The position numbers and the translations under genes are program-made. Shown here piece by piece: positions 3,728-52,876 of a stretch of 64,000 bases of DNA. Numbering within the stretch: the stretch's first letter is position 1; every line of letters starts with the position of its first letter. The DNA is from Oscillospiraceae bacterium (GTDB taxonomy: Bacteria > Bacillota > Clostridia > Oscillospirales > SIG627): assembly GCA_015063985.1 (NCBI GenBank), contig SVTC01000005.1, forward strand, positions 52,396 through 116,395. The letters are read 5' to 3'. The notes under the pieces are model-generated. The model saw only the letters and a list, made by a program, of their open reading frames with translations, was not told the origin of the DNA and made no database searches.

Positions 3728-4818
3728 CATTTTGTGAGCATTTTTTCAAATTGGCTGAGGGTGGTTGAACGGGCGATATACTCGCGTCTTACGGTGTAGG
3801 GATCGTCGGAGGTGTTATAAAGCCTTGAATCGTTCATGGTAACGGCAAAGGAATAATTCTCTTTTGTGAATTTCAGAGCCGAGGAATCGTATCTTCCCGT
3901 GGGGTAGCAAAGCACAAAGGATTCCTTCTTCAAAAGTCGGGCAAGATAGAGTTTGGAGGAGGTCAGTTCCCTTTCCTGTTGCTCGGGGGACACCAGATCG
4001 AGATCGGGATGGGTTGCGGTGTGGCTCTGGAAGGACACAAGGCCCGATCGGGACATTTCAAGTATCTGTTCCTCGGTGAGCTTATTTTTCCACCCCACAG
4101 TGTCGGTTATGATAAAGACGGTTGCCTTGACATTATATTTTTTTAATATGGGATAGAGATAAAGATAGTTATCGTCATATCCGTCATCGAAGGTTAAGAT
4201 AACGGGCTTTTCAATACCGTCCAGGCTTGCCAGATCCTCGAAAAATATGGGGGTATAGCCGTTATCAAGAAGCCAGACTATCTGCTTTTCCATATTCTCG
4301 GGCTTGACGAAAAGCTCTCTTATGCCCCAAACCTCATCGCTTACGGCGTGATACATCAAAACCGGTATTTCAATATCCTCGGGGATGGAGGTTGGGATAT
4401 AGGTGAAAAGAAGCTCGCCTGTTTCGTTAAAGGTCTTAAAGCCCAATGAATTAAGAAGCTCAGTGGTGATATACCAATCTTTGCCGTCGAAAAAGCCGTC
4501 GGCATCATAGCTTCTTCCCTTGAAGTTGAACTTGGCGGTGAAATTCTCTCCGTCGGTAAAAACCTCGTAATCGCAAAGATCAATAAGACGAATATACCGT
4601 ACCCCGTCCTTTTCATAGAGCCTTACTGCCTTTGAGTCAAGATAAGCATCGGCGCAGTGCTCGGGCGAGGCGGGGTAGCTGATCTGAGGGGGTGTCACGG
4701 GGGGAAGCTCGTCCTCGGCGCTTATAGGCGGCGGCAGGGTTGAGGGCTCGGTGTTCTTCAAGGGCGCGCAGGATAAAAGAAGCAGGCTCAGCAACACTGT
4801 GCAAAACAGCTTTTTCAT
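3727..4818 (-). CDS. Polysaccharide deacetylase (NodB homology domain) lipoprotein
   Basis: Lipobox LLLLSCAP. NodB motifs VLMYHAV, ILTFDDGYDDNY and HTATHPDL. The start overlaps the rsmG stop as ATGA (4815-4818). Confidence 0.8.
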   Translation of the reverse strand: MKKLFCTVLLSLLLLSCAPLKNTEPSTLPPPISAEDELPPVTPPQISYPASPEHCADAYLDSKAVRLYEKDGVRYIRLIDLCDYEVFTDGENFTAKFNFKGRSYDADGFFDGKDWYITTELLNSLGFKTFNETGELLFTYIPTSIPEDIEIPVLMYHAVSDEVWGIRELFVKPENMEKQIVWLLDNGYTPIFFEDLASLDGIEKPVILTFDDGYDDNYLYLYPILKKYNVKATVFIITDTVGWKNKLTEEQILEMSRSGLVSFQSHTATHPDLDLVSPEQQERELTSSKLYLARLLKKESFVLCYPTGRYDSSALKFTKENYSFAVTMNDSRLYNTSDDPYTVRREYIARSTTLSQFEKMLTK

Positions 4819-5603
4819 AGCTTTTTCTTCTTTATTTGTGCAAAGGCACGGGGATATTTATCCGGGGTGGGGGCTATCTTTTTTATTATCACAAGATATC
4901 TCTTGGACCGAGCGAATTCCTGCGCTACCGCTCTTTCCTCCTCTGTGAGCTCCAAGCCGTCAAAGCAGTTGGGGGAGAGTGTGGTCTCCTGAAGCCTTAC
5001 AAGCCTTCCGCCCAAAAGCTTGATCGCGTTTTTGGCTTCTTCAAGCTCTGCGGGGGCATCCTTGCCCTTCAGGGCGATAAAGTAGCCGCCCTTTTTCACA
5101 AAGGGAAGACAAAGCTCGCAAAGCATATCAAGCCTTGCCAGAGCTCTGGAAAAAACAAGATCCGCCTTTTCTCTGTGGGCTGAGCCCTTGCAGGCAAGCT
5201 CCTCCGCTCTGCCGCAGAGGCATCTTACGTTATTCAAGCCCAGAAGCCTCACCGATTCCTCAAGAGCCTTTATCTTTTTCTCGGTGGAATCCACCATAGT
5301 GATCTTCATATTTTCCTTTGTCAATGCCAGGGGAAGACCGGGAAACCCGCCTCCGCAGCCGATATCGTAGCAAAGGGGCGCGCGAAATTCTCCAAGCTCC
5401 TCAAGGCAAAGAGGGCTCAGGCTGTCGGCGATATGCTTTAAGGTGACTCCTGCCTCATCGGTCACGGCGGTGACGTTGATCTGTTGGTTAAGGCTCACCA
5501 GCCTTTCATACAGACTCCCGAAGGAGTCCATAAGCTCCTCGTCGGGCTCTATATAGGGGACTGCTCTTCTTAAAAGAGCCTTGCAGTTATGAGAAAGTGG
5601 CAT
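4815..5603 (-). CDS. rsmG: 16S rRNA (guanine527-N7)-methyltransferase
   Basis: SAM-binding motif YDIGCGGGFPGLPLA. It sits directly downstream of mnmG, which is the conserved synteny. Confidence 0.85.
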   Translation of the reverse strand: MPLSHNCKALLRRAVPYIEPDEELMDSFGSLYERLVSLNQQINVTAVTDEAGVTLKHIADSLSPLCLEELGEFRAPLCYDIGCGGGFPGLPLALTKENMKITMVDSTEKKIKALEESVRLLGLNNVRCLCGRAEELACKGSAHREKADLVFSRALARLDMLCELCLPFVKKGGYFIALKGKDAPAELEEAKNAIKLLGGRLVRLQETTLSPNCFDGLELTEEERAVAQEFARSKRYLVIIKKIAPTPDKYPRAFAQIKKKKL

Positions 5604-5610
5604 TTTTACC

Positions 5611-7488
5611 TCACACGATGTTCAGATATATTAAAAGAACGGTGATATCCGCGGGGCTGACACCCGAAATTCTGGATGCCTGGCCGATAGAACGGGGGCG
5701 GAGCTTTTCAAGCTTTTGTGCCGCCTCTATCCTCAGACCCTTGACGTCCTTATAGCAGACAGTGTCGGGAATAAGCTTTTCCTCCAGCTTCTTAAATGCC
5801 CTTGCCTCCTGCTGCTGGCGCTTGATATAGCCCTGATACTTTACCTCTATCTGGGCGCGCTCTATTACCTCGCTGTCAAGCTCGGGGCGGGTCACGTCCA
5901 CGGGGGCAAGCTTTGCGGCATCAAGCTCGGGGCGGCGAATAAGCTCGGAAAGACGCATTCCGCAATCCACGGGGGAGGATGAGTTTTCCGCAAGGATCTC
6001 GTTAAGCCTTTTCGAGGGGGGGAGAAAGGTGGATTCCATTCTTTGGATCTCTTGGTCTATCAGTGCGAAAAGCTCCTGCTTTTTGGCGTAGCGTTCATCG
6101 TCGATAAGACCTGCTCTCCTTCCGTGCCCGATAAGTCGGCGGTCGGCGTTATCCTGCCTTAAAAGCAGACGGTATTCGCAACGGCTGGTCATCATCCTAT
6201 AGGGCTCCTCGGTGCCCTTGGTGACGAGATCGTCGATAAGGGTGCCGATATAGCTTGAAGCCCTATCCAGGATCATAGGCTCCTTGCCGAGCTGATAAAA
6301 GGCGGCGTTGATGCCCGCCACTATTCCCTGAGCGGCCGCTTCCTCGTAGCCCGAGGTGCCGTTGAACTGTCCCGCGCCGTAAAGACCGCGGTGGTTTTTA
6401 AACTCCATCGTGGCATAAAGCTGGGTGGGATCTATGCAATCGTACTCAATAGCGTATGCCGTTCTCATTACCTTGGCATTTTCCAAGCCCTTTATGGAGT
6501 GGAGCACCTTGAACTGAACGTCCTCGGGCAGTGATGAGCTGAGTCCTTGAACGTACACCTCCTTGGTGTCGAGGCCCATAGGCTCAAGGAAGAGCTGATG
6601 ACGGCTTTTATCGGCAAAGCGCATTACCTTATCCTCAATGGAGGGGCAATATCTGGGACCCGTGCTTTTTATCTTGCCCGAATAAAGGGGAGAGCGATGT
6701 ATATTTTCACGGATGATGCGATGAGTCTCTTCGTTGGTATAAACGGTGTAGCAGCTGAGCTGAGGGATATTTTTAAACCTTTCCTTATCGGTGTAATAGG
6801 AGAAGGGGACGGGAGGAACGTCGCCCGGCTGGATCTCGCATTGAGAATAATCTATACTGTCGGCGTGGATCCTTGCGGGGGTGCCCGTTTTAAAGCGCAT
6901 AAAGGAGATCCCCAGCTCCTTTAAGCTGTCGGTAAGCTCGTTTGCGGGGAAGAGATTGTCGGGGCCCGCACTGTAGAAGCAGTCGCCCACCACGATATTG
7001 GCTCGAAGATAGGTTCCCGAGCAAACTATGACCGCTCTTGCCTCGTACACCGCGCCGAACTTCGTCACGAGCTCCCAAAGCTCTCCCTTGGGACGGATCT
7101 TTGTGATCTCGGCTTGGATGAGATCGAGATTTTTTGTGTTTTCCAACACGTTTTTCATATAGCGGTGGTAGGCTCTGCGGTCTGCCTGCTGTCTGAGAGA
7201 GTGTACGGCGGGGCCCTTTGCAAGGTTGAGCATTCTTGATTGGAGGCAGACCGTATCTGCCGCTCTGCCCATTTCTCCGCCCAGGGCATCTATCTCGCAG
7301 ACCAGATGACCCTTGCCCGTGCCTCCTATGGAGGGATTGCAGGGCATATTGCCCACCGCATCCAGACTGAGAGTGAAAAGAACGGTCTCCACCCCCATTC
7401 TTGCGCTTGCCAATGCCGCCTCGATGCCTGCGTGTCCCGCGCCCACAACGGCCGTACCTATGCTTTTACAGAAAAATTCTTCTATCAT
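5611..7488 (-). CDS. mnmG: tRNA uridine 5-carboxymethylaminomethyl modification enzyme MnmG (GidA)
   Basis: 625 aa. FAD motif VVGAGHAGIEAA. Full-length GidA-like sequence, adjacent to mnmE and rsmG. Confidence 0.95.
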   Translation of the reverse strand: MIEEFFCKSIGTAVVGAGHAGIEAALASARMGVETVLFTLSLDAVGNMPCNPSIGGTGKGHLVCEIDALGGEMGRAADTVCLQSRMLNLAKGPAVHSLRQQADRRAYHRYMKNVLENTKNLDLIQAEITKIRPKGELWELVTKFGAVYEARAVIVCSGTYLRANIVVGDCFYSAGPDNLFPANELTDSLKELGISFMRFKTGTPARIHADSIDYSQCEIQPGDVPPVPFSYYTDKERFKNIPQLSCYTVYTNEETHRIIRENIHRSPLYSGKIKSTGPRYCPSIEDKVMRFADKSRHQLFLEPMGLDTKEVYVQGLSSSLPEDVQFKVLHSIKGLENAKVMRTAYAIEYDCIDPTQLYATMEFKNHRGLYGAGQFNGTSGYEEAAAQGIVAGINAAFYQLGKEPMILDRASSYIGTLIDDLVTKGTEEPYRMMTSRCEYRLLLRQDNADRRLIGHGRRAGLIDDERYAKKQELFALIDQEIQRMESTFLPPSKRLNEILAENSSSPVDCGMRLSELIRRPELDAAKLAPVDVTRPELDSEVIERAQIEVKYQGYIKRQQQEARAFKKLEEKLIPDTVCYKDVKGLRIEAAQKLEKLRPRSIGQASRISGVSPADITVLLIYLNIV

Positions 7489-7499
7489 AATTATCCTTT

Positions 7500-8888
7500 T
7501 TATTTACCTACGCAAAAGCGTGAAAAAATATCGTCTACTATCCTTTGGCTGACTCCTCTGCCGTCAAGGGTGTAAAGGCTTTGCAGAGCCTCCTCCAAAA
7601 GGGCGCCGCAGGCATCCTTTAAGCCGTCTGTCAGGGCGGTTTTTGCCTCCTCAATGCAGTCCAGAGCCTTTCGGAGCTGATCTCTTTGTCTTACCGAGGT
7701 GAGAAGCCTGCCCTCGCTGAGAGCCGCATCGTCGGCAATAAAAAGCTCCTCTATTCTTTTTGCGAGCCCATCTATTCCCTCGGCCTTAGCGGCGCAGATA
7801 TATACGCCCTTGCCCAAGGCGGCTTCTATGCCGTGGGTATCAAGCCTTTTTTCAAGATCTGTCTTGCAGAAAACGGGGATCACCGTGCTTTGGGCGTCCT
7901 TCAGGCTTTCAAGAAGCAGCTCGTCGCTTTCGTCCCAAGGCTCGGAAAGGTCGAAAAGTGCAAGTATCAAGCCCTCCGAGATGGAGGATATAAGCTTTTT
8001 CGAAAGGGATATGCCGATATTTTCTATTTCGTCCGATGAGGCTTGTCTTATTCCCGCGGTGTCCTTCAGATTCAAAAGAAGCCTTCCCAGGGTGACCGGG
8101 TATTCCAGAACGTCACGGGTGGTGCCCTTAACAGAGGTGACTATTGCCTTTTCCTCGCCTGCGAGAGTGTTGAAGAGGGTGCTCTTGCCCGCATTGGGCT
8201 TTCCCACTATGACGGTATCTATGCCCTCGGTGATGGCTATTCCCGTCTTGGAGGTCAGGATAAGCCTTGAAATTTTTTCGGCGCACTCCTCTATGGCGGC
8301 AAGAAGCTCATCGTCGCTGATCTCTTCCATATCCTCCTCGGGATAATCTATGGCGGCATAAAGGCTTGAAACGGGGGTCAAAAGCTTATCTGCAATGGAG
8401 TTTATCTCTTGGCTGAGCCTTCCTCTTGCCACCTTGCCCGAAAGATACACCGCCTGCTCGCTTTTGGCGTCCAGAAGCTTTGCAATGCCCTCCGCCTTTG
8501 TAAGGGAGGTCTTTCCGTTTATAAAGGAGCGGCGGGTAAATTCTCCCGCCTCGGCGGGGCTTGCTCCCGCCCAAAGAACCGCATCCAGCACCATGGCGGT
8601 GACTCTCACGCCGCCGTGACAGCTTATCTCGGCGGTATCCTCGCCTGTGTAGGAGTTGGGGGCGGGGAAGAAGGTCATCAAAACGTCGTCTATGATCTTG
8701 CCGTCTACGGCAATAAGGCCGTAATGGGCGCTTCGGGGAACTATTTTTCCCCAGGGCTCAAGACTGTCGGGGTTATTCTTGAAGAAGATCCTTCTTATGA
8801 TATTTTCGGCATCGTCGCCGCTTATTCTTATCACCGATACTCCCGCCTTCATAGGGGCGGTGGAAACGGCGCATACGGTTTTTGACAT
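7500..8888 (-). CDS. mnmE: tRNA modification GTPase MnmE (TrmE)
   Basis: G1 motif GKPNAGKST, C-terminal CVGK tetrapeptide, 462 aa, upstream of mnmG. Confidence 0.95.
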   Translation of the reverse strand: MSKTVCAVSTAPMKAGVSVIRISGDDAENIIRRIFFKNNPDSLEPWGKIVPRSAHYGLIAVDGKIIDDVLMTFFPAPNSYTGEDTAEISCHGGVRVTAMVLDAVLWAGASPAEAGEFTRRSFINGKTSLTKAEGIAKLLDAKSEQAVYLSGKVARGRLSQEINSIADKLLTPVSSLYAAIDYPEEDMEEISDDELLAAIEECAEKISRLILTSKTGIAITEGIDTVIVGKPNAGKSTLFNTLAGEEKAIVTSVKGTTRDVLEYPVTLGRLLLNLKDTAGIRQASSDEIENIGISLSKKLISSISEGLILALFDLSEPWDESDELLLESLKDAQSTVIPVFCKTDLEKRLDTHGIEAALGKGVYICAAKAEGIDGLAKRIEELFIADDAALSEGRLLTSVRQRDQLRKALDCIEEAKTALTDGLKDACGALLEEALQSLYTLDGRGVSQRIVDDIFSRFCVGK

Positions 8889-11048: not shown

Positions 11049-11183
11049 TTTGTCTTCCTTATTAATATATAATAAAATATTATAACTCCCATCGAAAATT
11101 TTGTCAACAATAAGGTCAAAATTGTTGACTTTGGAGCGATTATTTGTTAAAATTAAGAGTAATTTGAAAAAGGGAGAGAATCT

Positions 11184-15458: not shown

Positions 15459-15482
15459 TAAGGCGAAAGGAGCATGGAGGCT

Positions 15483-16220
15483 ATGCACGAGATAAAAAGC
15501 AGCAGAGATATAACTAAAGTACTGGATGAATTCTATAAAAAAGAGGACGTTGCGGGGGCGGGAGAGTTTTTGGAGAGCTGCCTTAAAAGGCTTCGGGAAG
15601 AAAAAAACACGGCTCTTGAGCTTACGGTTCTCAGTGAGCTTATGGGCTTTTACAGAAGAAACGGCAACGGCACGGCTGCCCGTGAGGTATGCCTCAGAGG
15701 AATAGAGCTTCTGGAAAAGGGCTCGGTGCCCGACTCTCTTTCAAAGGCGGCGATATGGATAAATGCCGCCACCACCTTATGCTCCTGCCGAAGTGTCGAT
15801 GAGGATATAGAATATTTTGAAAGGGCTCGGGAGATATATCTCAGGCTTTTAAGGGCCAACGATCCTCTTTGGGCAAGCTATTATAACAATCTTGCCACCG
15901 CGCTGGAATCAAAAAAGAGACTTGCCGAGGCAAGGGATAATTATCTTAAAGCGCTGGAGATCGCATCGCGCACGTATCAGCCTTGCTCTGTGGCGGTGAC
16001 TGCGGTAAATCTTGCCTGCCTTGCGTCAAAAGCGGGGGATGAGGGCGAGGCGGATAAATACGTGGGCACGGCGTGGGATGCTCTGGAGAGGGAAAGAGAC
16101 AGAGGCGAAAAATACGCCTTTGCCTGCAGAAAATGTGCCGAGGCGATGGATCTTCTCGGATATTTCTACTATGCCGCAAGGCTGAATGAAAGGGCTGATA
16201 AAATATATGAAGGGGCTTGA
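15483..16220 (+). CDS. Tetratricopeptide-repeat (TPR) protein
   Basis: Helical repeats with TPR-like A/Y/L spacing (..WASYYNNLATALESKKRLAEARDNYLKALEIA..). ATG 15483 lies 10 nt after AAGGAG. ATG 15474 is an alternative start. Confidence 0.6.
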   Translation: MHEIKSSRDITKVLDEFYKKEDVAGAGEFLESCLKRLREEKNTALELTVLSELMGFYRRNGNGTAAREVCLRGIELLEKGSVPDSLSKAAIWINAATTLCSCRSVDEDIEYFERAREIYLRLLRANDPLWASYYNNLATALESKKRLAEARDNYLKALEIASRTYQPCSVAVTAVNLACLASKAGDEGEADKYVGTAWDALERERDRGEKYAFACRKCAEAMDLLGYFYYAARLNERADKIYEGA

Positions 16221-17109
16221 AATAAGCGAAAAATGCTTTCGGGAAAGCTTTATGCCCGCAGTGGAGGCTGAATACGGCGAGGCGGCAGAGGCTATCTGTG
16301 CGGGGCTTTGCGGCGGCGGCTCGGAGTGCTACGGCTGCGATGACAAGATAAGCCGCGATCACGATTTTTCCGACGGCTTTTATATATGGCTTACCGAGGA
16401 TGACGATATACGTTACGGCGTTGGGCTCTCAAGGATATATAGGAGCATTGTTAAGTCCGAGGGAAGAAGAAGCGTTGAGGGCAGAGCCAGAGGAGTCTGC
16501 ACCGTAGGGAGCTTTTATCTTGGGTATCTTGGCACGAGAGGCTTGCCCGAAAGCCTTGTTGACTGGGCGCTTCTGCCTGAATACGCTCTGTACGAGGCCT
16601 GCAACGGAAGGGTGTTTTGCGATAACAGAGGGGAGTTTTCAAGGATAAGAGAGGCGCTTTTGGATATTCCCGAGGACGTTTTGAGAAAGAAGCTTGCCTG
16701 CAGGCTTATTAATATGGCTCAGTCGGGGCAGTATAATTATACAAGATGCTTAGCCCACGGCGAGAGGGGTGCGGCAAGATTTGCTCTGGATGAATTCTGC
16801 AAAAATGCGGTATCCGCGGCGTTTTTACTGAATAAAAGCTACACTCCTTACTATAAATGGGCGCTGAGAAAGCTTTCCGAGCTTGATAATATGAAGACCT
16901 TTGCAGGCTTAACAGAGGAGCTTTTGTGGGAGAAGGATGAGAAAAAATGCAGTGAGATGATTGAAAATATATGCCAAAGGATAGCCCGAATGACCGTTGA
17001 TGCGGGCTTATGCTCCCAATGCGGCGACTATCTTGAGCCTTACGCCTACGGAGTTTATAACGGTATAGCCTCAAGGGAGCTGAAAACAGTTCACATTATG
17101 GAGGGCTGA
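16207..17109 (+). CDS. Nucleotidyltransferase-fold protein (possibly DUF4037-type) with a helical C-terminal domain
   Basis: Pol-beta/MNT-like signature GGGSECYGCDDKISRDHDF (G-S ... D-x-D) at 16312-16365. It overlaps the TPR gene by 14 nt. The DUF4037 label is from memory only. Confidence 0.5.
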   Translation: MKGLEISEKCFRESFMPAVEAEYGEAAEAICAGLCGGGSECYGCDDKISRDHDFSDGFYIWLTEDDDIRYGVGLSRIYRSIVKSEGRRSVEGRARGVCTVGSFYLGYLGTRGLPESLVDWALLPEYALYEACNGRVFCDNRGEFSRIREALLDIPEDVLRKKLACRLINMAQSGQYNYTRCLAHGERGAARFALDEFCKNAVSAAFLLNKSYTPYYKWALRKLSELDNMKTFAGLTEELLWEKDEKKCSEMIENICQRIARMTVDAGLCSQCGDYLEPYAYGVYNGIASRELKTVHIMEG

Positions 17110-17156: not shown

Positions 17157-17185
17157 TTGACAAATAAAGAGCTTGGGTATATAAT
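17157..17185 (+). promoter_or_regulatory. Perfect consensus sigma-A promoter upstream of the TIR-LRR gene
   Basis: TTGACA (17157-17162), exactly 17 nt, then TATAAT (17180-17185). Confidence 0.7.
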
Positions 17186-17234
17186 ATCATAGAAAAAAAT
17201 TGTGGAAAAAAGGAATTTTTTAAGGAGCGATAAG

Positions 17235-18872
17235 ATGTCCAATACAAGTTCTTCGCAGGCTGCTTGCGATTTTGAAGCCGTACACACTAAATTTGAGGCA
17301 TACACGGGAAACGAGCCCTATCTTTTTGTCAGCTATTCTCACCGCGATACCGCGCAGGTATATCCCATTCTTGACGCGCTCAGCGACAGAAAATACAGGA
17401 TCTGGTACGACGAGAGCTGTGAGACCGGTAACGATTTCAGAGACGAGCTCAGGCACAGAATAGAAAAATGCGAGGCGGTGGTGCTTTTCGTATCCAAGTC
17501 CAGCATGGAATCTCCCTTCTGCGGAATGGAGATAATCGTTGCCAGGGAGAATCAGAAGAGGCTTTACCCCGTTTATCTTGACGATGCGGCAGTGCCTCCC
17601 GCGTTCCAGATGCTTCTTGCCAATACCCATCACAGCACCGCGGAGAACGTGGAAAGGCTTATAAAGGCCATGGTCAGAGATCTTCCTGCGGTGACTATGG
17701 ATCGGCTGACCACAGACGGCGCCGTTCTGAAAAAGTGCGAGGACAACGGGAAGAGCATTGAGGTGGATGAGGGCATTACCGAGATAAGTGCCGAGGCCTT
17801 CAAGGGCAGAAGAGCCCTGCATTACATAAAGCTGCCCGAATCCCTGGAGTCCATCGGGCTTGAAAGCTTCAGAGGCTGTACCAATCTCAAGGAAATGGAG
17901 ATACCCGACAATACCGTACGTATCGGCGAGAGTGCCTTCAGAGATTGCACGGATATGAAGAGGCTCAAGATAAAGAACAATTGCATTAAGATAGGGGAAA
18001 GAGCCTTTGAAAACTGCTCGGATCTGGAGGACGTTCAGCTTCCCGAGGGCTTGACTGAGATATACGGCGGTGTTTTCAACAGCTGCAAGAGTCTTAAGAA
18101 CATCAAGCTTCCCGAAAAGCTTACCATTCTCGGCGAAAGTGCCTTCAGTGATTGTATAGTACTCAAGGAGGTCGCCATCCCCGAAACGGTGACAAAGATC
18201 GACGACCTTGCCTTCAACGGTTGTATCAGCATGACCAAGCTTGAGCTCAGCGAGGGCTTGAAGAAGATCGGAAAGAGCGCCTTCAAGAATTGCCGCGCCC
18301 TTTCAAAGATCGAGCTTCCCTCCACGGTCACAAGCATCAGCAACGCTCCCTTCAGAGGCTGTGAGAGCCTGAAGAGCATAAAGGTTGCTCCCAAGAACAA
18401 GAACTACAAGTCGGAGCCCAACAAGCGCGAGGGCAGTGATCACGTTCTCTTCAACAAGAACAAATCCGTGCTTATCGCATATCCTGCCAGCAGCAGAGAG
18501 GTCCAGTACGACGTTCCCGACAGTGTTACGGTTATCAGCGATTGGGCATTTTGCGAGTGCAAGAAGCTTAACAGAATAACCATCCCCGACAGTGTCAAGG
18601 AGATCGGCGAGGGCGCCTTCTGCAACTGCGCTTTGTTGGACGAGGTGGAGATTCCCGATAGCGTCAGCATTATAGACGACTGCGCCTTCAGAGGCTGTAC
18701 AAATCTGGAAAAGGTTATCGTGCCCTCCAGTGTTACAGAGCTTGGATGGGGACTTTTCGACGGTTGCGAGGCCAACGTCACCGTATACTGTGAAAAGGGA
18801 TCTGCGGTTTGGGATTATTGCGTGAGAAACGCCATAGTTACCTGTGATATAAATGATAAGGATAGCGAATAA
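17235..18872 (+). CDS. Cytoplasmic TIR-domain protein fused to BspA-type leucine-rich repeats (LRR_5-like)
   Basis: ATG 17235 follows TAAGGAG, and there is no signal peptide. TIR (TIR_2-like) blocks are YLFVSYSHRD, YRIWYDE, AVVLFVSKSS and SPFCGMEI, with a Glu at 17529-17531 in the position of the NADase catalytic Glu. About 11 repeats of ~23 aa follow (lP.svt.Ig..AF..C..L..i.i) from about 17757 to 18860. Confidence 0.75.
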   Translation: MSNTSSSQAACDFEAVHTKFEAYTGNEPYLFVSYSHRDTAQVYPILDALSDRKYRIWYDESCETGNDFRDELRHRIEKCEAVVLFVSKSSMESPFCGMEIIVARENQKRLYPVYLDDAAVPPAFQMLLANTHHSTAENVERLIKAMVRDLPAVTMDRLTTDGAVLKKCEDNGKSIEVDEGITEISAEAFKGRRALHYIKLPESLESIGLESFRGCTNLKEMEIPDNTVRIGESAFRDCTDMKRLKIKNNCIKIGERAFENCSDLEDVQLPEGLTEIYGGVFNSCKSLKNIKLPEKLTILGESAFSDCIVLKEVAIPETVTKIDDLAFNGCISMTKLELSEGLKKIGKSAFKNCRALSKIELPSTVTSISNAPFRGCESLKSIKVAPKNKNYKSEPNKREGSDHVLFNKNKSVLIAYPASSREVQYDVPDSVTVISDWAFCECKKLNRITIPDSVKEIGEGAFCNCALLDEVEIPDSVSIIDDCAFRGCTNLEKVIVPSSVTELGWGLFDGCEANVTVYCEKGSAVWDYCVRNAIVTCDINDKDSE

Positions 18873-20002
18873 TGAGTGAGCAATCAATGGGATCCCGTGC
18901 CCTGGGCTTGGTAAAGAAGAATGCGGTCTGCTGTATCGCCTTCGTGCTTGCTCTGATCACCTGCTTTATAATTCCCATAGATAAGGAATATCTCGGTTAT
19001 TTTGATTACAAGACCCTTACCTGCCTTTTCTGTGTGCTTGCGGTGGTCTGTGCCTTAAAGAATATAAGATTTTTCTATATTCTTGCAAAAAAAGTGGTAA
19101 GACTTTTCAAAAACGCCCGTATGAGTGTGCTGGCGTTGGTTTACATAACATTTATCGGCTCTATGCTGATAGCCAACGATATGGCGCTTTTGACCTTTTT
19201 GCCGCTGGGATATTTTGTTTTGACCACCACCGGCAAGGAAAAGTACATGGCATTTGTTTTCATTATGCAAAACATTGCCGCAAACCTGGGCGGTATGCTG
19301 ACTCCCTTCGGAAATCCTCAGAATCTCTATTTGTATTCCAAGTATGAGATAGATAACCTTGAGTTTATGGGGATAATGGCGCCTCCCTTTGTTGTATCGG
19401 TGCTTCTGATAACTCTGTGCTGCATAGTGTTTGTAAAGCCCGAGCCCTTGGAGCTGGATGACGAAAAAGTCCAGCTGAGCATTCCCAGGACCGCCGCGTA
19501 CCTTGGTTTGTTTGCCCTTTCCATCGTAATAGTTTTCAGGGGAATACCTTATTGGATAGGACTTATAATTATACCGATAGCCCTGCTGTTTATGGACAGA
19601 AAGGCTCTTCTTGACGTGGATTACGGTCTGCTTTTGACCTTCGTGTTCTTCTTTATCTTTGCCGGAAATATGGCAAGGATAGACGTGGTAAGAAGCTTGT
19701 TTTCTTCTCTTCTGGACAAGAGCACCCTTCTTTTCAGCACCGTTTCCTGCCAATTTATAAGTAACGTTCCCTCGGCGATACTCTTAAGCCAGTTTACCTC
19801 CAATTACAGAGATCTGTTGGTGGGAGTTAATATCGGCGGCGTGGGTACTCTTATAGCAAGCCTTGCAAGCCTTATTACCTTCCGTGAGTACATTAAGCAC
19901 AATCCCGGAAGGACTCTCTATTACGTGGCGAAGTTTTCCGTATTTAATTTCGGATTTTTGGTGATACTTTTGCTTTTTTCATTTGCGATGAAGCTATTTT
20001 AA
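18872..20002 (+). CDS. ArsB/NhaD-superfamily (SLC13/CitMHS-like) anion permease
   Basis: Polytopic membrane protein with IANDMALLTFLPL and TPFGNPQNLYLY motifs. Its ATG overlaps the TIR-LRR TAA stop by 1 nt (tAATG). Confidence 0.65.
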   Translation: MSEQSMGSRALGLVKKNAVCCIAFVLALITCFIIPIDKEYLGYFDYKTLTCLFCVLAVVCALKNIRFFYILAKKVVRLFKNARMSVLALVYITFIGSMLIANDMALLTFLPLGYFVLTTTGKEKYMAFVFIMQNIAANLGGMLTPFGNPQNLYLYSKYEIDNLEFMGIMAPPFVVSVLLITLCCIVFVKPEPLELDDEKVQLSIPRTAAYLGLFALSIVIVFRGIPYWIGLIIIPIALLFMDRKALLDVDYGLLLTFVFFFIFAGNMARIDVVRSLFSSLLDKSTLLFSTVSCQFISNVPSAILLSQFTSNYRDLLVGVNIGGVGTLIASLASLITFREYIKHNPGRTLYYVAKFSVFNFGFLVILLLFSFAMKLF

Positions 20003-20023: not shown

Positions 20024-20893
20024 ATGGATATGATGATGCTGGTGCTTTCCGCAGTGCTTTTGGCAGTGGATTTTCTTATTGCGGGTACGTACCAAAGGTG
20101 GGAGGGCAACACTCCGATTAAGGTCTTCAGATTTAACTTTTTTATCGGACTTTTTTCTATACTGATCTTCTTTTTCATAAACGGATGCAGATTTGAGTTT
20201 ACCGCCTTTTCGGCTGTACTTGCCGTGGTGATGACCTCTCTTGCGATCCTTTACACTCTCATCGGCTTTAAGGTTTTGGCGGCGGGAAATACGGCTTACT
20301 ATTCCTTCTTTCTTATGACGGGAGGAATGGTGGTTCCCTATATCTGGGGAATTGCTTTTCTGAACGAGGACTTTTCCGTGTTGAGGCTTATAGGTCTTTT
20401 GATGATAGTGGGCTCTGCCTTCGTTATCTACGGCGGCAAGAACAAGATGAGCCTTAAGGTAGCCTTGATGTGCGCCGCCATCTTTCTTCTGAACGGCTTT
20501 GTCAGCGTTATCTCCAAGGAGCATCAGATCAGCACCGAGGCGGTCAGCTCCGCGGCATACGTAATTCTCACTGCGGCGGTGAAGGTGATAGTTTGCGGCT
20601 CGCTTTGGCTGGGGACCGCTCTTCGCTCAAGGGCTCAGAGGGCTTCCTCGGAGAGGATAAGCCTCAAGGCGGTGGCTATACTTGCCGCATCTGCCTTGGT
20701 CAGCGGACTTTCCTATATGCTTCAGCTCAATTCCGCGGCAAAGCTTCCCGCAACGGTGGTATATCCCATCATCACGGGAGGAAGTGTGGTGTTTACCGCC
20801 TTTGCAGGATGGCTGGTGCTTAAGGAAAAGCCCACAAAGGAGCTTATTGTGGGTGTTATAATCTCCTTTATCGGAACTTGCTTATTCCTGTGA
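20024..20893 (+). CDS. DMT-superfamily (EamA-like) transporter
   Basis: About 10 predicted TM helices in two similar halves, 289 aa. Confidence 0.6.
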   Translation: MDMMMLVLSAVLLAVDFLIAGTYQRWEGNTPIKVFRFNFFIGLFSILIFFFINGCRFEFTAFSAVLAVVMTSLAILYTLIGFKVLAAGNTAYYSFFLMTGGMVVPYIWGIAFLNEDFSVLRLIGLLMIVGSAFVIYGGKNKMSLKVALMCAAIFLLNGFVSVISKEHQISTEAVSSAAYVILTAAVKVIVCGSLWLGTALRSRAQRASSERISLKAVAILAASALVSGLSYMLQLNSAAKLPATVVYPIITGGSVVFTAFAGWLVLKEKPTKELIVGVIISFIGTCLFL

Positions 20894-21303: not shown

Positions 21304-21785
21304 TTATTCCTCTGCGTATAATTCATCGTAGTACCAACGAATCGGGTTTTCGTAAATGTATTTTACGTGTTCTTTATAGTCATCGCGGTTACGAATTATA
21401 TGGTCGTTAAAACGAGCTTGCCAAACGTTTTTGCCATACTCCTTATTGCAAAAACGCTTGAATGTCGATACAAATTGAGAGCATACGCTATTGGCTCTTT
21501 CAATTTTTCCTTTACCCAAAGCAAAAAATGGATGTGGTTAGGCATTATGACATATTTTTCAACCGACAAATGTTCATAGAAATCATTTAATTGTTTGATG
21601 TGTTTATCCGCAATTTCTCCGTATTGGGTTAATTCGATTTGCGGACAGTCGAGGACGCCTGTCCCTACAACGCGAGATAGGATGCTTCGCCTATTTTGCG
21701 TGCAAATCGTTATAAAATATACTCCAACACTATTGTAATCAAAACTTTGATATCTCGGTGTTTTTCTCTTTTTAAGTTCATCCAT
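21304..21785 (-). pseudogene. RAYT-type (REP-associated tyrosine, HUH/Y1, IS200-like) transposase, split by a frameshift
   Basis: The N-part (ORF 21396-21899, start ATG 21785) carries the HUH motif VIMPNHIHFLL. The C-part (ORF 21304-21519) carries NVWQARFNDHIIRNRDDYKEHVKYIYENP, which resembles E. coli RayT NIWQPRFWEHAIRN..YRHHVDYIYINP. The frames join if the A6 run at 21523-21528 is A7. Confidence 0.8.
21642..21669. repeat. REP-like hairpin copy c, located inside the RAYT coding sequence
   Basis: cggacagtcgaggacgcctgtccctaca, read in frame on the minus strand as VGTGVLDCP. Confidence 0.8.
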
Positions 21786-21860
21786 TTTTATCACCCACAT
21801 CATTTTAACACAAATCGGCAGAGAAAATAACTTCTCCGCCGATTTATATGTGTGTATTAA

Positions 21861-21887
21861 GGACCGTCGAGGACGCCGGTCCCTACA
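21861..21887. repeat. REP-like hairpin copy d, upstream of the RAYT start
   Basis: ggaccgtcgaggacgccggtccctaca. The stem is GGACCG/CGGTCC, a double compensatory change relative to GGACAG/CTGTCC. Confidence 0.8.
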
Positions 21888-21946
21888 AATTGTAAACATC
21901 CTTATGAGAACGCTCCTAAGGCGGGACTTTTCTTTGGTTTTTCAGA

Positions 21947-22993
21947 TCAAAGGATATCCTTCATTACTTTTATAACAGCCGCCGCCATGGAGGCAAAGCC
22001 CAGATCGGTGGGGTGGCAGCCGTCCACGGTTCCGCGGTCAAGACAAAGCTCGGTGAGCTCCTTATTGGTGATGAGATAAACGTTTTTATCTCCTGCGGCT
22101 TTGGCTTGAATGTAGGTGCTTTCGATTATTTCAAGGCGCTTTTTCTCGTCCTCGTTAAGATAGCACTTGGGGCGGTTCATCATAATGATGGGAAGAGTGG
22201 GATTTGCGCTTCTGATGATATCAAACATTCTCTTGTGGGTGTTTTGCAGATGCTCGGTTGAGGGAGCGTTGTGATCGTAGTCATAGACAAAAGCGCTCAT
22301 TTCGAGGTTTTTGATGTAGTTGGACATATTATCCTCGCCCTTGGCATTTCCCGAGAAGCCGAGGTTTATGTAGTTGCAGTCCAGAGCCATGGAAACCAGA
22401 GCCTGGTAGCTTGTGGAGGGGGTGGAGGCGCATCCGCCCTGGGTGATGCTGGAGCCGTAGTACACAACGGGCTTCTCGACTCTGTAGGGGGTGGGGGCTT
22501 CTATCACTGCGCTTTCGGCAAGACCGATATAAAGCTCCTTTATTCCGCTGTAGAGAGGCATGGTGAGAAGAAGCTCCTTTTTGCCCTCGCCCACGTTTAC
22601 CACGCCTTCAAGCATTTCTGTGGCGCCAAAGTGGGGGATGTAGCTGCCTGCATAGCGGGGCTTGCCGTCCTTGTATACGGTAAGATCAAATCCTGCCGAG
22701 CCTGCAAGAGCAAAGTGAGCCATCTTTCCCATGGAAAGCTTTGCATACACTGCAACGTAGGGGCTGTCGGTGATAAATTTAACTCTACCGCCTGCGGTGT
22801 TTTTGTGAAGAAGCTTAACACCCTCGTTGACAGAGTTTGCAACCTCCTCGGGCATTCTTCTGATGCGCTCGTTGTCGAAGATGACGCCGTATACCTTGAA
22901 GGGCTCTTCCCAAATGCTGTGGAATTTAACGTCCGGTTTTTTGATCTCCTGTGGGTCGATGGCGAAATTCTTATCAAGCTTTGCGATATCCAT
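21947..22993 (-). CDS. SGNH/GDSL-type esterase with an N-terminal beta-sandwich domain (acetyl-esterase-like)
   Basis: VYYGSSITQGGCAS (catalytic Ser block) and GCHPTDLGF (D-x-x-H block). It is a paralog of the next gene. Confidence 0.7.
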   Translation of the reverse strand: MDIAKLDKNFAIDPQEIKKPDVKFHSIWEEPFKVYGVIFDNERIRRMPEEVANSVNEGVKLLHKNTAGGRVKFITDSPYVAVYAKLSMGKMAHFALAGSAGFDLTVYKDGKPRYAGSYIPHFGATEMLEGVVNVGEGKKELLLTMPLYSGIKELYIGLAESAVIEAPTPYRVEKPVVYYGSSITQGGCASTPSTSYQALVSMALDCNYINLGFSGNAKGEDNMSNYIKNLEMSAFVYDYDHNAPSTEHLQNTHKRMFDIIRSANPTLPIIMMNRPKCYLNEDEKKRLEIIESTYIQAKAAGDKNVYLITNKELTELCLDRGTVDGCHPTDLGFASMAAAVIKVMKDIL

Positions 22994-23005
22994 TTTTATT
23001 CTCCT

Positions 23006-24061
23006 TTACAGATTGAAAATTTTTTTCATTACCTTTGTAACAGCCGCCGCTATGGAAGCAAAGCCCAAGTCTGTGGGGTGGCATCCGTCCACTGTGCCGC
23101 AATCCTTTGAAAGAGCGGTAAGCTGTTTTGAACTGATGAAATACACGTTTTCATCTCCCGCCGCCTTGGCGTCAAGATAGGTCTTCTTTATAATTTTGTG
23201 GCGCTTTATTTCGTCCTCGGTTTGGAAATATTTAGGGCGCGGCATGATGATTATCGGAAGAGTGGGATTAGCGTTTCTGATGACGTCAAACATTCTCTTG
23301 TGGGTGTTTTCAAGATGCTCGGCAGAGGGTGCGTTGTGATCGTAGTCATAGACGAAGGCGCTCATTTTAAGATCCTTGATATAGTTTGCGATCTCAAGCT
23401 CTCCTTTTGCTCCGCCTGAAAAGCCAAGGTTTATATAGTCGCAGTCGACGTTTCTGGAAACAACAGCCTCATAGCAGGCACCGGGGTTTGAAGCGCAAGC
23501 GCCGTGGGTTATGCTGGAGCCGTAATAGACTATAGGCGTTTTGATGGTGTATTCGGGGGAGGCTTCAAGCTTGGCATCCTTGCTCAAGCCGATATAAAGC
23601 TCACAAACGGCGCTGTGGAGAGGGAAGTTTATCACGATATCCCTCGTTTTTTTGCCTTGCAGCTCGATTGCGGCTTCGTATCTGTCCTCGATCCTGAAGG
23701 GCGGGATCACGTTTCCTCTTCGACGTTGCTTGCCGTCCTCGAAGACGTAAAGATCAAAGCCCGCAGTTGCCGCCATGGGGAAGGTGGTGTTTTTTATGAT
23801 CTGCTTCAAAACCGCATATATTGCCACGTAGGGGCTGTCGGTGGTGAAGCGGACTCTTCCGCCGGAGGAATGGGTGTGGAGAGTTGCCACGTCGTTACTG
23901 ACGGAGTTAGCCAGCTTTTCGGGAAGTCTTCTGTACACACCGTTTTCCAAGGTGACGCCGTACAGACGGATCTTTCCTTCGCCGATGGGATAATATTTCA
24001 CGTCGGCTTTGTTGAGGTTGCTGTCAAGGATGATATCTTTTCCTTCGACCTGAACGTTCAT
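23006..24061 (-). CDS. SGNH/GDSL-type esterase, tandem paralog
   Basis: VYYGSSITHGACAS and GCHPTDLGF. Collinear similarity to 21947-22993 along the whole length. Confidence 0.7.
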   Translation of the reverse strand: MNVQVEGKDIILDSNLNKADVKYYPIGEGKIRLYGVTLENGVYRRLPEKLANSVSNDVATLHTHSSGGRVRFTTDSPYVAIYAVLKQIIKNTTFPMAATAGFDLYVFEDGKQRRRGNVIPPFRIEDRYEAAIELQGKKTRDIVINFPLHSAVCELYIGLSKDAKLEASPEYTIKTPIVYYGSSITHGACASNPGACYEAVVSRNVDCDYINLGFSGGAKGELEIANYIKDLKMSAFVYDYDHNAPSAEHLENTHKRMFDVIRNANPTLPIIIMPRPKYFQTEDEIKRHKIIKKTYLDAKAAGDENVYFISSKQLTALSKDCGTVDGCHPTDLGFASIAAAVTKVMKKIFNL

Positions 24062-34514: not shown

Positions 34515-34543
34515 TTGACACAAATCGGCAAAGAGGATATAAT
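34515..34543 (+). promoter_or_regulatory. Consensus sigma-A promoter for the IMPase/HAD genes
   Basis: TTGACA (34515-34520), 17 nt, TATAAT (34538-34543). Confidence 0.65.
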
Positions 34544-46649: not shown

Positions 46650-46709
46650 GCGCTTGACAAACGGTCGGCGTAAGTGTATAATTCCAATATAAACCAAAGG
46701 AGAAGAAAA

Positions 46710-51772: not shown

Positions 51773-52876
51773 TCAAACGTTGAATCTGAACAGCACAACG
51801 TCGCCGTCCTTCATCACGTACTCCTTTCCTTCGCTTCTTACAAGTCCCTTTTCCTTGGCGGCGGTCATAGAGCCGCACTCCATAAGCTCGTCGTAGCCGA
51901 TGACCTCTGCGCGGATGAAGCCGCGTTCGAAGTCGGAATGAATCTTTCCTGCGGCGGCGGGAGCGGTGGTGCCCCGTTTGATGGTCCAGGCTCTGACCTC
52001 GGGCTTACCTGCGGTGAGGTAGCTGATGAGGCCCAGAAGCTCGTAGCCTGCGGCGATGAGTCGGTCCAGGCCCGATTCCTTAAGGCCGTACTCCTCCAGG
52101 AATGCTGCCTTATCCTCGGGATCCATCTGGCTGAGCTCTGCCTCGATCTGAGCGCACACGGGAATGATGCCGCTGTTTTCGCCGTCTGCAATAGCCTTAA
52201 GGGCGCGGTAATGATCGTTTGCGCCCTCGGGACTGTCGATGGAGTCGATATCATCCTCGCCCACGTTGGCTGCGTAGATAACGGGCTTCATGCTGAGAAG
52301 GGGGCTTTCGCTGAGCATCTGCTTCTCATCGTCGGTCATTTCCACAAGTCTTGCGGGAATGCCTTGGCTGAGGGCGTCCATTACTCTTTGGGTGAGATCT
52401 ATATCCACCTGAGCCTCCTTATCACCCTTCAGGCGCTTCTTGGCTCTGTCCAGCCTCTTTTCCAATATTTCTATATCGGAAAGGATGAGCTCCATATTGA
52501 TTATCTCAACGTCTCTTGCGGGATCAACGCCCTTATCCACGTGGACTATGTCCGCATTTTCAAAGCAACGGACAACGTGAACTATGGCATCCACCTCGCG
52601 GATGTGGCTCAAAAACTTGTTGCCCAGACCCTCGCCTTGGCTTGCGCCCTTAACGAGACCCGCAATGTCAACGAATTCGATGATGGCGGGGGTGGTCTTC
52701 ACTGCGTCGTAGAGCTTGGTAAGCTCGTCAAGGCGCTTGTCGGGCACCGTTACCACGCCCACGTTGGGGTCTATGGTGCAGAAGGGGTAGTTTGCCGCCT
52801 GCGCACCCGCTCCCGTAAGAGCATTAAAAAGTGTACTCTTGCCAACGTTTGGCAAGCCGACGATACCGAGTTTCAT
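51773..52876 (-). CDS. ychF: Redox-regulated ribosome-binding ATPase YchF
   Basis: [21 protein letters not shown] and a C-terminal TGS-like ..FIRAEVI.. segment, 367 aa. Confidence 0.95.

Follow-up and report, generated by a model that had tools for sequence, protein, structure and literature searches.

What does a bacterium do with a protein that joins a TIR domain to leucine-rich repeats (LRRs)? The question is raised by a gene on contig SVTC01000005.1 of an Oscillospiraceae bacterium (assembly GCA_015063985.1), within a stretch of 64,000 nucleotides (positions 52,396 to 116,395 of the forward strand) that is called the window here. The gene, designated TIR-LRR in this study, encodes an N-terminal TIR domain followed by a BspA-type LRR solenoid, and it forms a conserved pair with a permease gene whose start codon overlaps its stop codon. 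Relatives often carry a third gene, for a membrane protein with a ryanodine receptor (RyR) domain. All functional statements on this module are computational. We place about even confidence in the reading that it is a membrane-coupled, Thoeris-like TIR nucleotide-signalling module with a probable role in defence; an anti-phage role is plausible. Thoeris combines the TIR signal generator ThsB with a ThsA-type effector, and type II Thoeris has an effector with transmembrane (TM) and Macro parts (TM-Macro).

A first-pass annotation, made from the sequence alone, had described a TIR_2-like N-terminus without a signal peptide and LRR_5/BspA repeats after it, and had proposed profile searches and structure prediction as a check. 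The check was run in this study and agrees with the description. Pfam TIR_2 (PF13676) matched residues 31-125 with an E-value of 5.4e-19 (69.3 bits against a gathering cutoff of 28), and Pfam LRR_5 (PF13306) matched in three stretches with an E-value of 1.7e-85 (283.7 bits against a gathering cutoff of 27.7). The four motif strings quoted earlier (YLFVSYSHRD, RIWYDE, VVLFVSKSS, and SPFCGMEI) were all found in the protein. The AlphaFold2 (AF2) model of TIR-LRR was built on 39 homologues and has a mean pLDDT of 86. Its TIR part is a flavodoxin-like βαβ domain, for which the best structural match in Foldseek was the SARM1 TIR domain (TM-score 0.64). Profile searches against the PDB matched the TIR domain to a bacterial TIR protein (7uxr), AbTir, AT1G72930, RPV1, and a TLR2/TLR15 TIR. 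The sequence similarity to known NADase TIRs was low (E ~5e-4 with the family profile).

The glutamate of GMEI, Glu99, had been placed at the catalytic position of TIR NADases, and both its codon and its position were borne out. In single-sequence and profile searches of the PDB, Glu99 aligned with the Glu of NYEL in AbTir, which we take to be E208, and with the Glu of CLDEL in AT1G72930 and RPV1. Three blocks, S33-Y-S-H36, W57-Y-D59, and C96-G-M-E99, are invariant in 71 of 71 species-level orthologs, and TIR-LRR shares the βA motif FxSxSH and the WYDE motif with AbTir-type NADases. Such a Glu does not by itself establish catalysis, and NAD+ turnover by TIR-LRR is a prediction. Five Christensenellaceae-labelled species (L047:9473-9970; also L048, L055, L058, and L060) encode a TIR-LRR protein of ~708 aa. 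Its ~160 additional N-terminal residues can be aligned in register to the TIR domain (23% identity, pairwise E 0.001), but the Glu is missing there; this region is apparently a degenerate tandem TIR. A TIR-like stretch was also seen on an unannotated human-faecal phage contig (MT836178.1, 8023-8418, minus strand), with 35% identity to residues 21-147 of TIR-LRR and an E-value of 4e-19.

No NB-ARC/NACHT/STAND NTPase or P-loop domain was found between TIR and LRR in Pfam or in the AF2 model, and only a 47-residue linker joins them. The repeat register of the solenoid consists of nine clean 23-residue repeats (residues 173-379), a tenth that is split by a hairpin insert of ~40 residues, three more repeats, and a cap; the count is thus ~13 repeats plus the cap and not about 11 as first estimated. 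The LRR part matched 4gt6 (E 1e-15), 4fs7 (E 6e-14), 4h09, PcpA, and TpLRR in Foldseek, with E-values from 1e-15 to 1e-8. Surface anchoring of the kind seen in BspA-like adhesins was not found, and NCBIfam HupY/LrrG scored 122 bits against a cutoff of 1250. No hydrophobic segment, TM segment, secretion motif, or signal peptide was found anywhere in the protein. The N-terminus is hydrophilic and variable in TIR-LRR and in 38 aligned homologues, again without a signal peptide, and the first 14 residues of TIR-LRR are disordered in the AF2 model. These results indicate that the protein is cytoplasmic.

The partner gene was identified as a permease by a Pfam CitMHS match with an E-value of 3.5e-25 (89.3 bits against a cutoff of 31.9), and its product has ~10 hydrophobic segments. 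The AF2 model of the permease matched VcINDY, Pho90, NaDC3, and ArsB in Foldseek; given its pLDDT of 61, these matches support the superfamily only. A PDB sequence search with the permease found nothing. Source records name it "citrate transporter", "SLC13 family permease", or "NhaD/arsenite permease-like". Partners were counted in the 49 species loci that had enough flanking sequence, with a simple procedure for calling and clustering open reading frames (ORFs) across loci (greedy longest ORFs, BLAST at 60% coverage). The permease lies within 200 nt of TIR-LRR on the same strand in 44 of the 49 loci, and the ATAATG stop/start overlap recurs in ~25 species loci. The pairing is kept with a second permease type (435-458 aa, Pfam CitMHS and ArsB, less than 20% identical), and it is also kept with reversed gene order in a clade at 50% identity. 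TIR-LRR and permease show correlated pairwise distances (r = 0.73). Five of the 49 loci lack both the permease and the RyR-domain partner. The overlap of the stop and start codons suggests that the two products form a stoichiometric complex.

The third gene was found in 27 of the 49 loci, in three gene orders and always adjoining the TIR-LRR/permease pair. It encodes a membrane protein of ~600 aa with four N-terminal TM helices, a weak TrkA_N-like Rossmann region (15 of 32 members), and a C-terminal RyR domain. Pfam RyR matched 18 of the 32 members, and the family profile matched PDB entries with E-values of 1e-16 (RyR1 chimera) and 8e-8 (the "putative ryanodine receptor" of B. thetaiotaomicron). 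When scanned singly, the member at L001:8163-9983 gave no significant Pfam match. Residues H557, W560, H587, and D604 are invariant in the partner and align with H36, W39, H61, and D78 of the B. thetaiotaomicron RyR-like protein. A 2026 preprint reported that RyR/R12-domain proteins (PF02026) bind 2'cADPR and 3'cADPR, cyclic ADP-ribose (cADPR) products of TIR enzymes, and that the phage protein RyDEP also cleaves them; the residues concerned (H75, W78, H100, and D117) were reported to be conserved across the family (PMC13232231). The B. thetaiotaomicron protein has the same residue spacing as RyDEP (+3, +25, +42), and the partner has +3, +30, and +47 through a five-residue insertion. By this spacing, and not by direct alignment, the partner residues would map onto the RyDEP pocket. 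The partner looks like a host-encoded RyR-domain receptor or effector, and a TIR gene beside a membrane protein with a cADPR-type pocket would reproduce the generator/receiver layout of Thoeris with different parts. The window holds a reduced two-gene form, in which TIR-LRR and the permease follow a promoter of their own.

The exact TTGACA-17-TATAAT promoter that had been claimed for TIR-LRR was verified as a 12 of 12 match. In the sister species (L098), both hexamers and their spacing are unchanged although the remaining intergenic region is rearranged by indels, which argues that the promoter is functional. The window contains five perfect promoters (TTGACA-N16-18-TATAAT), whereas shuffled sequence predicts 0; perfection is thus the norm in this genome and not special to the TIR-LRR gene. 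The other four are at 394-422, 11079-11107 (minus strand), 34515-34543, and 46654-46682; full-consensus promoters are unusually frequent in the source organism. The autonomous expression that had been deduced from the promoter was not upheld, because a permease gene, the ATG of which overlaps the TIR-LRR stop, follows it as the second member of a conserved pair, and because in most relatives TIR-LRR is not promoter-proximal and sits after the RyR-domain gene. The ORF, on the plus strand and ending at 18872, has alternative starts at GTG 17202 and ATG 17235. The ATG is the likely start, as it lies six bases past AAGGAG, and gene callers also predict a 545-aa product in at least 10 conspecific contigs. 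A riboswitch or other RNA element in the leader was rejected, since no Rfam family and no tRNA was found in the window.

We examined how the family is distributed and how fast it evolves. Full-length homologues form more than 120 clusters at 79-85% identity, all of 544-555 aa and of the same architecture; one carries the name "leucine-rich repeat protein [Clostridia bacterium]". When one genome per GTDB species was scanned, relatives turned up in 104 species, of which 80 were kept, with identity measured over the N-terminal 172 residues (TIR and linker). The kept relatives come from metagenome-assembled genomes (MAGs) of gut, rumen, and caecum labelled Acutalibacteraceae, Christensenellaceae, Oscillospiraceae, Ruminococcus, and similar, and their identity over this region runs from 84% down to 45%. 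A search of representatives with the full protein was uninformative on relatives, as the top 150 of 392,635 matches were all giant LRR_5 proteins. Between the window and the sister species, the TIR-LRR protein is 93% identical and the neighbouring DUF4037 protein 76%. The dN/dS ratio for this comparison is 0.037 for TIR-LRR (TIR 0.041, LRR 0.024) and 0.10 for the DUF4037 neighbour, with a dS of ~1.3. In more distant species, the DNA of TIR-LRR and permease is ~70% identical and the proteins are ~84-85% and 81-82% identical, respectively, whereas the nearest relatives of the DUF4037 protein beyond the sister species are 53-60% identical. TIR-LRR is also more conserved than the amino-acid ABC transporter encoded in the same loci. 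These results indicate an old divergence under strong constraint and not a recent transfer. Recent horizontal transfer was rejected as the source of the high identity on the same DNA and protein values, the dS against the sister species, and the normal GC content. Column conservation in the 71 orthologs is 0.74-0.83 for the LRR and 0.81 for the TIR, and the looser LRR columns are confined to positions 2 and 4 of each repeat, on the exposed strand (0.44-0.49). TIR-LRR is a slowly evolving gene tied to a permease and does not look like a typical mobile phage-defence gene.

In the Thoeris-like module, the LRR would engage a ligand or a partner and the TIR domains would be brought together. The assembled TIRs would convert NAD+ to ADP-ribose (ADPR)-type nucleotides, most likely a cADPR isomer. 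This product would act on the membrane partners, namely the permease and, in loci that encode it, the RyR-domain protein, and membrane transport or integrity would be altered. The trigger would most likely be phage infection, with a response of the abortive-infection type; this is the least secure step. Bacterial TIR enzymes are known as generators of phage-defence signals or as depleters of NAD+. A defence role is favoured by these known enzymes, by an occasional defence-island context, and by a variable composition of the cassette. The cassettes of two relatives (L001 and L004) stand among genes for TIR-HD, ThsB-like TIR, TIR-methyltransferase and Card1 (L001) or TIR-STING (L004), and protein kinases. 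Among 150 immediate neighbours of the cassette in ~60 species, the commonest family is TIR_2 (5 members), and 14 matches to PADLOC families were found, some possibly to one protein; the neighbours are mostly unrelated housekeeping genes.

The TIR-rich islands by these two cassettes span L001:12965-21414 and L004:14729-21600. Both encode a 983-aa TIR-HD_3 protein (as two gene calls in L001) and a ThsB-like TIR (with DUF4190 in L004). Additional genes encode a TIR-methyltransferase fusion, an ADP-ribosylglycohydrolase, and an upstream Card1 in L001, and a CAP12-type TIR-STING and Ser/Thr kinases in L004. In both, an AAA+/AAA_lid_6 ATPase gene lies upstream together with one for a YbjN-like protein. 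In L010 (L010:72-2039 and L010:2032-7890) and ~14 other loci, two more genes often lie ahead of the cassette. They encode a membrane protein of 525-739 aa with weak VIT1 similarity and a protein of 1300-2000 aa with a weak transglutaminase-like core.

Several results weigh against the Thoeris-like module with a defence role. The arrangement is constant in all conspecific contigs shown, which come from 10 metagenome samples, and the window is ordinary chromosome with normal GC content. PADLOC gave no meaningful match on the neighbours of TIR-LRR in the window, and no close relative of TIR-LRR was found in phage, viral-contig (IMG/VR), or plasmid collections. No PADLOC or NCBIfam system model matches TIR-LRR, and the sub-threshold matches are limited to its TIR domain. 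The RyR-domain gene is absent from the window, so that the argument for a receiver is borrowed from relatives, and the role of the permease is unexplained by the module model. TIR-LRR looks, from its substitution pattern, like a housekeeping gene under strong purifying selection, and its LRR is not hypervariable and is under stronger purifying selection than the TIR. Its more than 120 homologue clusters stay at ~85% identity, where the neighbour falls to 56%. Non-catalytic TIR domains of TLR1/2/6/10 also carry a Glu at the catalytic position (PMC7075850). Two ideas linked to the first-pass annotation were not supported. In the window, a variable island, for which it had suggested a presence/absence test, agrees poorly with a locus ~8 kb from mnmE-mnmG-rsmG that has normal GC content, no PADLOC neighbours, and a constant conspecific arrangement, and the picture of an LRR immune sensor in an arms race does not fit an LRR with a lower dN/dS than the TIR in a protein more conserved than its housekeeping neighbours. 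The proposed anti-phage function may hold: defence and TIR genes (TIR-HD, ThsB-like, TIR-STING, Card1) lie beside the cassette in some relatives, but no such neighbours were found by PADLOC in the window. A phage or plasmid origin of the gene was rejected, as IMG/VR held no relative and plasmid and phage records gave only TIR matches of ~30% identity. A known defence system was likewise rejected as the identity of TIR-LRR on its sub-threshold, TIR-only matches in PADLOC and NCBIfam.

A serious rival reading, though the less likely one, is that the module is a housekeeping second-messenger or regulatory system. As a vertically inherited regulator of membrane transport, TIR-LRR would then make or consume a nucleotide derived from NAD+ when a physiological signal calls for it (for example redox or NAD status, the load of ions or anions, or sporulation), and no phage would be involved. 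TIR-LRR would control the IT-family permease and, in loci that have it, the RyR/TrkA_N protein, much as TrkA-type nucleotide-binding subunits gate TrkH. A physiological function is favoured by the very slow evolution, the constant within-species arrangement, and the housekeeping context of the gene. Purifying selection is very strong on both TIR and LRR, and TIR-LRR is more conserved than both the DUF4037 neighbour and the ABC transporter. Besides the constant conspecific arrangement, synteny with DUF4037 is kept in the sister species and synteny with housekeeping genes in five Christensenellaceae-labelled species. More than 100 species carry the gene, mostly among housekeeping neighbours, and the lack of close relatives in phage, viral-contig, and plasmid collections and the stop/start overlap with a transporter point the same way. 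However, to our knowledge all characterised cytoplasmic bacterial TIR enzymes belong to defence or conflict systems, and no bacterial physiology with cADPR-type messengers is known. The composition, order, and position of the cassette also vary by species, sometimes within TIR-rich defence islands. The DNA similarity of the window to L001 and L004 is restricted to 17283-19956, which is exactly TIR-LRR and the permease, and flanks differ between species. In one locus, a truncated TIR-only ORF is fused to the C-terminal half of the permease (L073:9926-10393). This looks like a deletion of the LRR and half of the permease, that is, an occasional loss, with a MAG assembly error as the alternative. 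Such a remnant and varying flanks would be typical of accessory genes.

It is unlikely, in our view, that the genes form, in place of a phage-defence system, a vertically inherited cADPR-type second-messenger pathway of bacteria, in which a cADPR isomer made by an LRR-regulated TIR cyclase gates the RyR-domain protein and/or an anion permease. If it were so, prokaryotes would have a counterpart, perhaps even a relative, of the long-debated link from cADPR to the ryanodine receptor in animals, and the RyR/R12 domain would gain its first host-encoded receptor role.

We consider it improbable that TIR-LRR is a self-contained abortive-infection protein that depletes NAD+, like TIR-STING or SPARTA, with an LRR that binds a conserved phage protein and with neighbours that are passengers. 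The Glu at the catalytic position, the matches of the TIR to the NADase TIRs of SARM1 and AbTir, the own promoter in the window form, and the five loci without both partners are consistent with such a protein, but the permease adjoins TIR-LRR in 44 of the 49 loci despite the reversal of order and the swap of permease subtype, the stop and start codons overlap, the distances of the two proteins are correlated, and the nucleotide pocket of the RyR partner is intact. A non-enzymatic scaffold, with the TIR as an oligomerisation or adaptor domain (as in TLR/MyD88 or the Tcp host-mimics) and the LRR as a protein-binding and possibly host-interacting part, would suit the usual role of BspA-type LRRs as adhesins and the insufficiency of Glu for catalysis (PMC7075850), but it is very improbable, as no signal peptide, TM segment, or secretion motif was found in the protein or in the N-termini of 38 homologues, FxSxSH and WYDE of AbTir-type NADases are invariant besides Glu99, and the link to a RyR domain that binds nucleotides suggests that the product is a nucleotide.

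The gene order in the window is rsmG-mnmG-mnmE, P-type ATPase, PHP protein, amino-acid ABC transporter, TPR protein, DUF4037/NTase-like protein, TIR-LRR, CitMHS permease, EamA transporter, esterases, and glycoside hydrolases (Table 1). The rsmG-mnmG-mnmE cluster is usually close to the replication origin, and the window may accordingly be origin-proximal chromosome. The TPR and DUF4037 genes were rejected as members of the system, since the same overlapping pair is conserved in other Clostridia, occurring without TIR-LRR in L099, L100, and L101, and is found beside none of the 80 other species loci. The EamA gene, which is possibly co-transcribed with TIR-LRR and the permease in this species only, was rejected as a conserved partner for the same absence from the 80 loci. 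Just downstream of it, a 167-aa ORF lies in the lowest-GC stretch of the region (0.38). The two esterase genes are followed by GH2, GH43, and GH123 glycoside hydrolase genes, and the whole looks like a glycan-degradation cluster.

Table 1. Positions of TIR-LRR, its parts and signals, and neighbouring genes in the window
Feature	Position	Strand	Remarks
rsmG, mnmG, mnmE	4815-8888	-	In a row; ~8 kb from TIR-LRR
TPR protein	15474-16220		Overlaps the next gene
DUF4037/NTase-like protein	16186-17109		N-terminal GS...D.D nucleotidyltransferase-like motif
Sigma-70-type promoter	17157-17185	+	TTGACA 17157-17162, 17-nt spacer, TATAAT 17180-17185; 12/12 match
Ribosome-binding site AAGGAG	17223-17228	+	6 nt ahead of ATG 17235; direct sequence inspection
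TIR-LRR gene	17235-18872	+	545 aa, cytoplasmic; ORF, Pfam, AF2 model, homologues
TIR domain core	17310-17609	+	aa 26-125; motifs FVSYSH, WYDE, SPFCGMEI; Pfam TIR_2
Glu99 codon, putative catalytic glutamate	17529-17531	+	Alignment to AbTir and plant TIRs; invariant in 71/71 orthologs
Linker	17610-17750	+	aa 126-172; helix and LRR N-terminal cap strands, invariant CEDNG; AF2 secondary structure, invariant columns C168-G172
BspA-type LRR_5 solenoid	17751-18869	+	aa 173-545; ~13 23-residue repeats, hairpin insert aa 385-430, C-terminal cap
CitMHS/IT-superfamily (DASS/ArsB-like) permease	18872-20002	+	376 aa; ATG shares a base with the TIR-LRR TAA stop (ATAATG)
EamA-family transporter gene	20024-20893	+	Pfam EamA; 21 nt downstream of the permease; in all conspecific contigs
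167-aa ORF	21396-21899	-	Weak REP-associated tyrosine (Y1) transposase match, 27 bits where the cutoff is 80
Two tandem paralogous GxDLY + GDSL-type esterase genes	21947-24061	-

TIR-LRR with its membrane partners is best counted among the bacterial TIR enzyme systems, with a make-up that appears new. The first-pass annotation knew of no characterised bacterial fusion of a TIR with BspA-type LRRs without an NTPase module. It was right in that no characterised homologue was found, but a direct bacterial TIR-LRR association had been noted earlier in a genomic survey (PMC7145615). In 2024, a survey of TIR systems in E. coli commented that leucine-rich repeats and other TLR-like features appear to be missing from the TIR systems of bacteria (PMC11350192). 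In the literature we found neither a TIR_2 and LRR_5 protein nor its permease partner described, and no TIR gene with a host RyR-domain partner; a paper on gut TIR NADases and its supplements mention no LRR fusion. The family is a direct TIR-LRR fusion that is widespread in gut and rumen Clostridia, extremely conserved, and firmly linked in the genome to membrane transport proteins. Should the TIR product act on the partners, they would represent a new effector class for TIR signalling and a host-side function for bacterial RyR domains, and the module would offer a tractable bacterial system in which to ask whether RyR-type domains are cADPR receptors. The family may also bear on the NAD+ metabolites made by gut bacteria (PMC9092222).

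TIR-LRR was compared with known systems, beginning with Thoeris. As in Thoeris, a TIR with a Glu at the catalytic position is encoded beside a protein in which a nucleotide-binding domain is combined with an effector part. The RyR partner of the relatives has the type of pocket that recognises the Thoeris signals 2'/3'cADPR (PMC13232231), and it is membrane-embedded like the effector of type II Thoeris. Unlike in Thoeris, the TIR is fused to a 370-aa BspA-type LRR, so that the sensor is on the TIR itself, and the gene is slowly evolving and largely vertically inherited. Similarity to ThsB was partial in PADLOC (E 1e-6 or weaker), Pfam ThsB_TIR reached 19.8 bits against 21.2, and NCBIfam ThcB4 reached 26 bits against a cutoff of 220. 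No adjacent ThsA-type effector (SIR2/SLOG or TM-Macro) was found; the window has CitMHS and EamA proteins in its place and the relatives a TM-TrkA_N-RyR protein, so that the partners are an IT-family permease and this RyR protein.

Like plant TNLs and animal TLRs, TIR-LRR has TIR and LRR in one polypeptide, and like TNLs it is cytoplasmic, with an N-terminal TIR and the αC motif S-x-[WF]-C-x-x-E-[LI]. In contrast to TNLs and TLRs, it has no NB-ARC/STAND NTPase and no TM helix, its 23-residue BspA/LRR_5 repeats are not canonical plant or animal LRRs, and its LRR is under strong purifying selection. The central NTPase that marks the NLR/STAND proteins (plant TNLs, bacterial Avs/bNACHT) was not found in it. 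FxSH, WYDE, and the Glu at the catalytic position are shared with AbTir/TcpB/PdTir-type NADases and the SARM1 TIR, which are coiled-coil-TIR or ARM-SAM-TIR proteins, whereas TIR-LRR has an N-terminal TIR and then the LRR. The LRR subtype, fold, hairpin insert, and C-terminal cap are those of BspA surface proteins (T. forsythia BspA, PcpA, TpLRR, 4gt6/4fs7/4h09); these are secreted or surface-anchored adhesins, whereas TIR-LRR lacks both signal peptide and anchor and bears a TIR of the enzyme type. The surveyed TIR-LRR proteins of Chloroherpeton thalassium and Rhodopirellula baltica likewise join a TIR to an LRR within a single polypeptide that has no NB domain, and they are uncharacterised, but they come from other phyla, and the LRR family that the survey names is the canonical LRR_8 (PF13855), with no partner genes or function described (PMC7145615). 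Finally, the third gene of the relatives carries the same H/W/H/D ligand residues as RyDEP and other PF02026 proteins. RyDEP is a small soluble anti-defence protein of phages, whereas in the relatives the RyR domain forms the C-terminal part of a host membrane protein whose gene adjoins a TIR gene.

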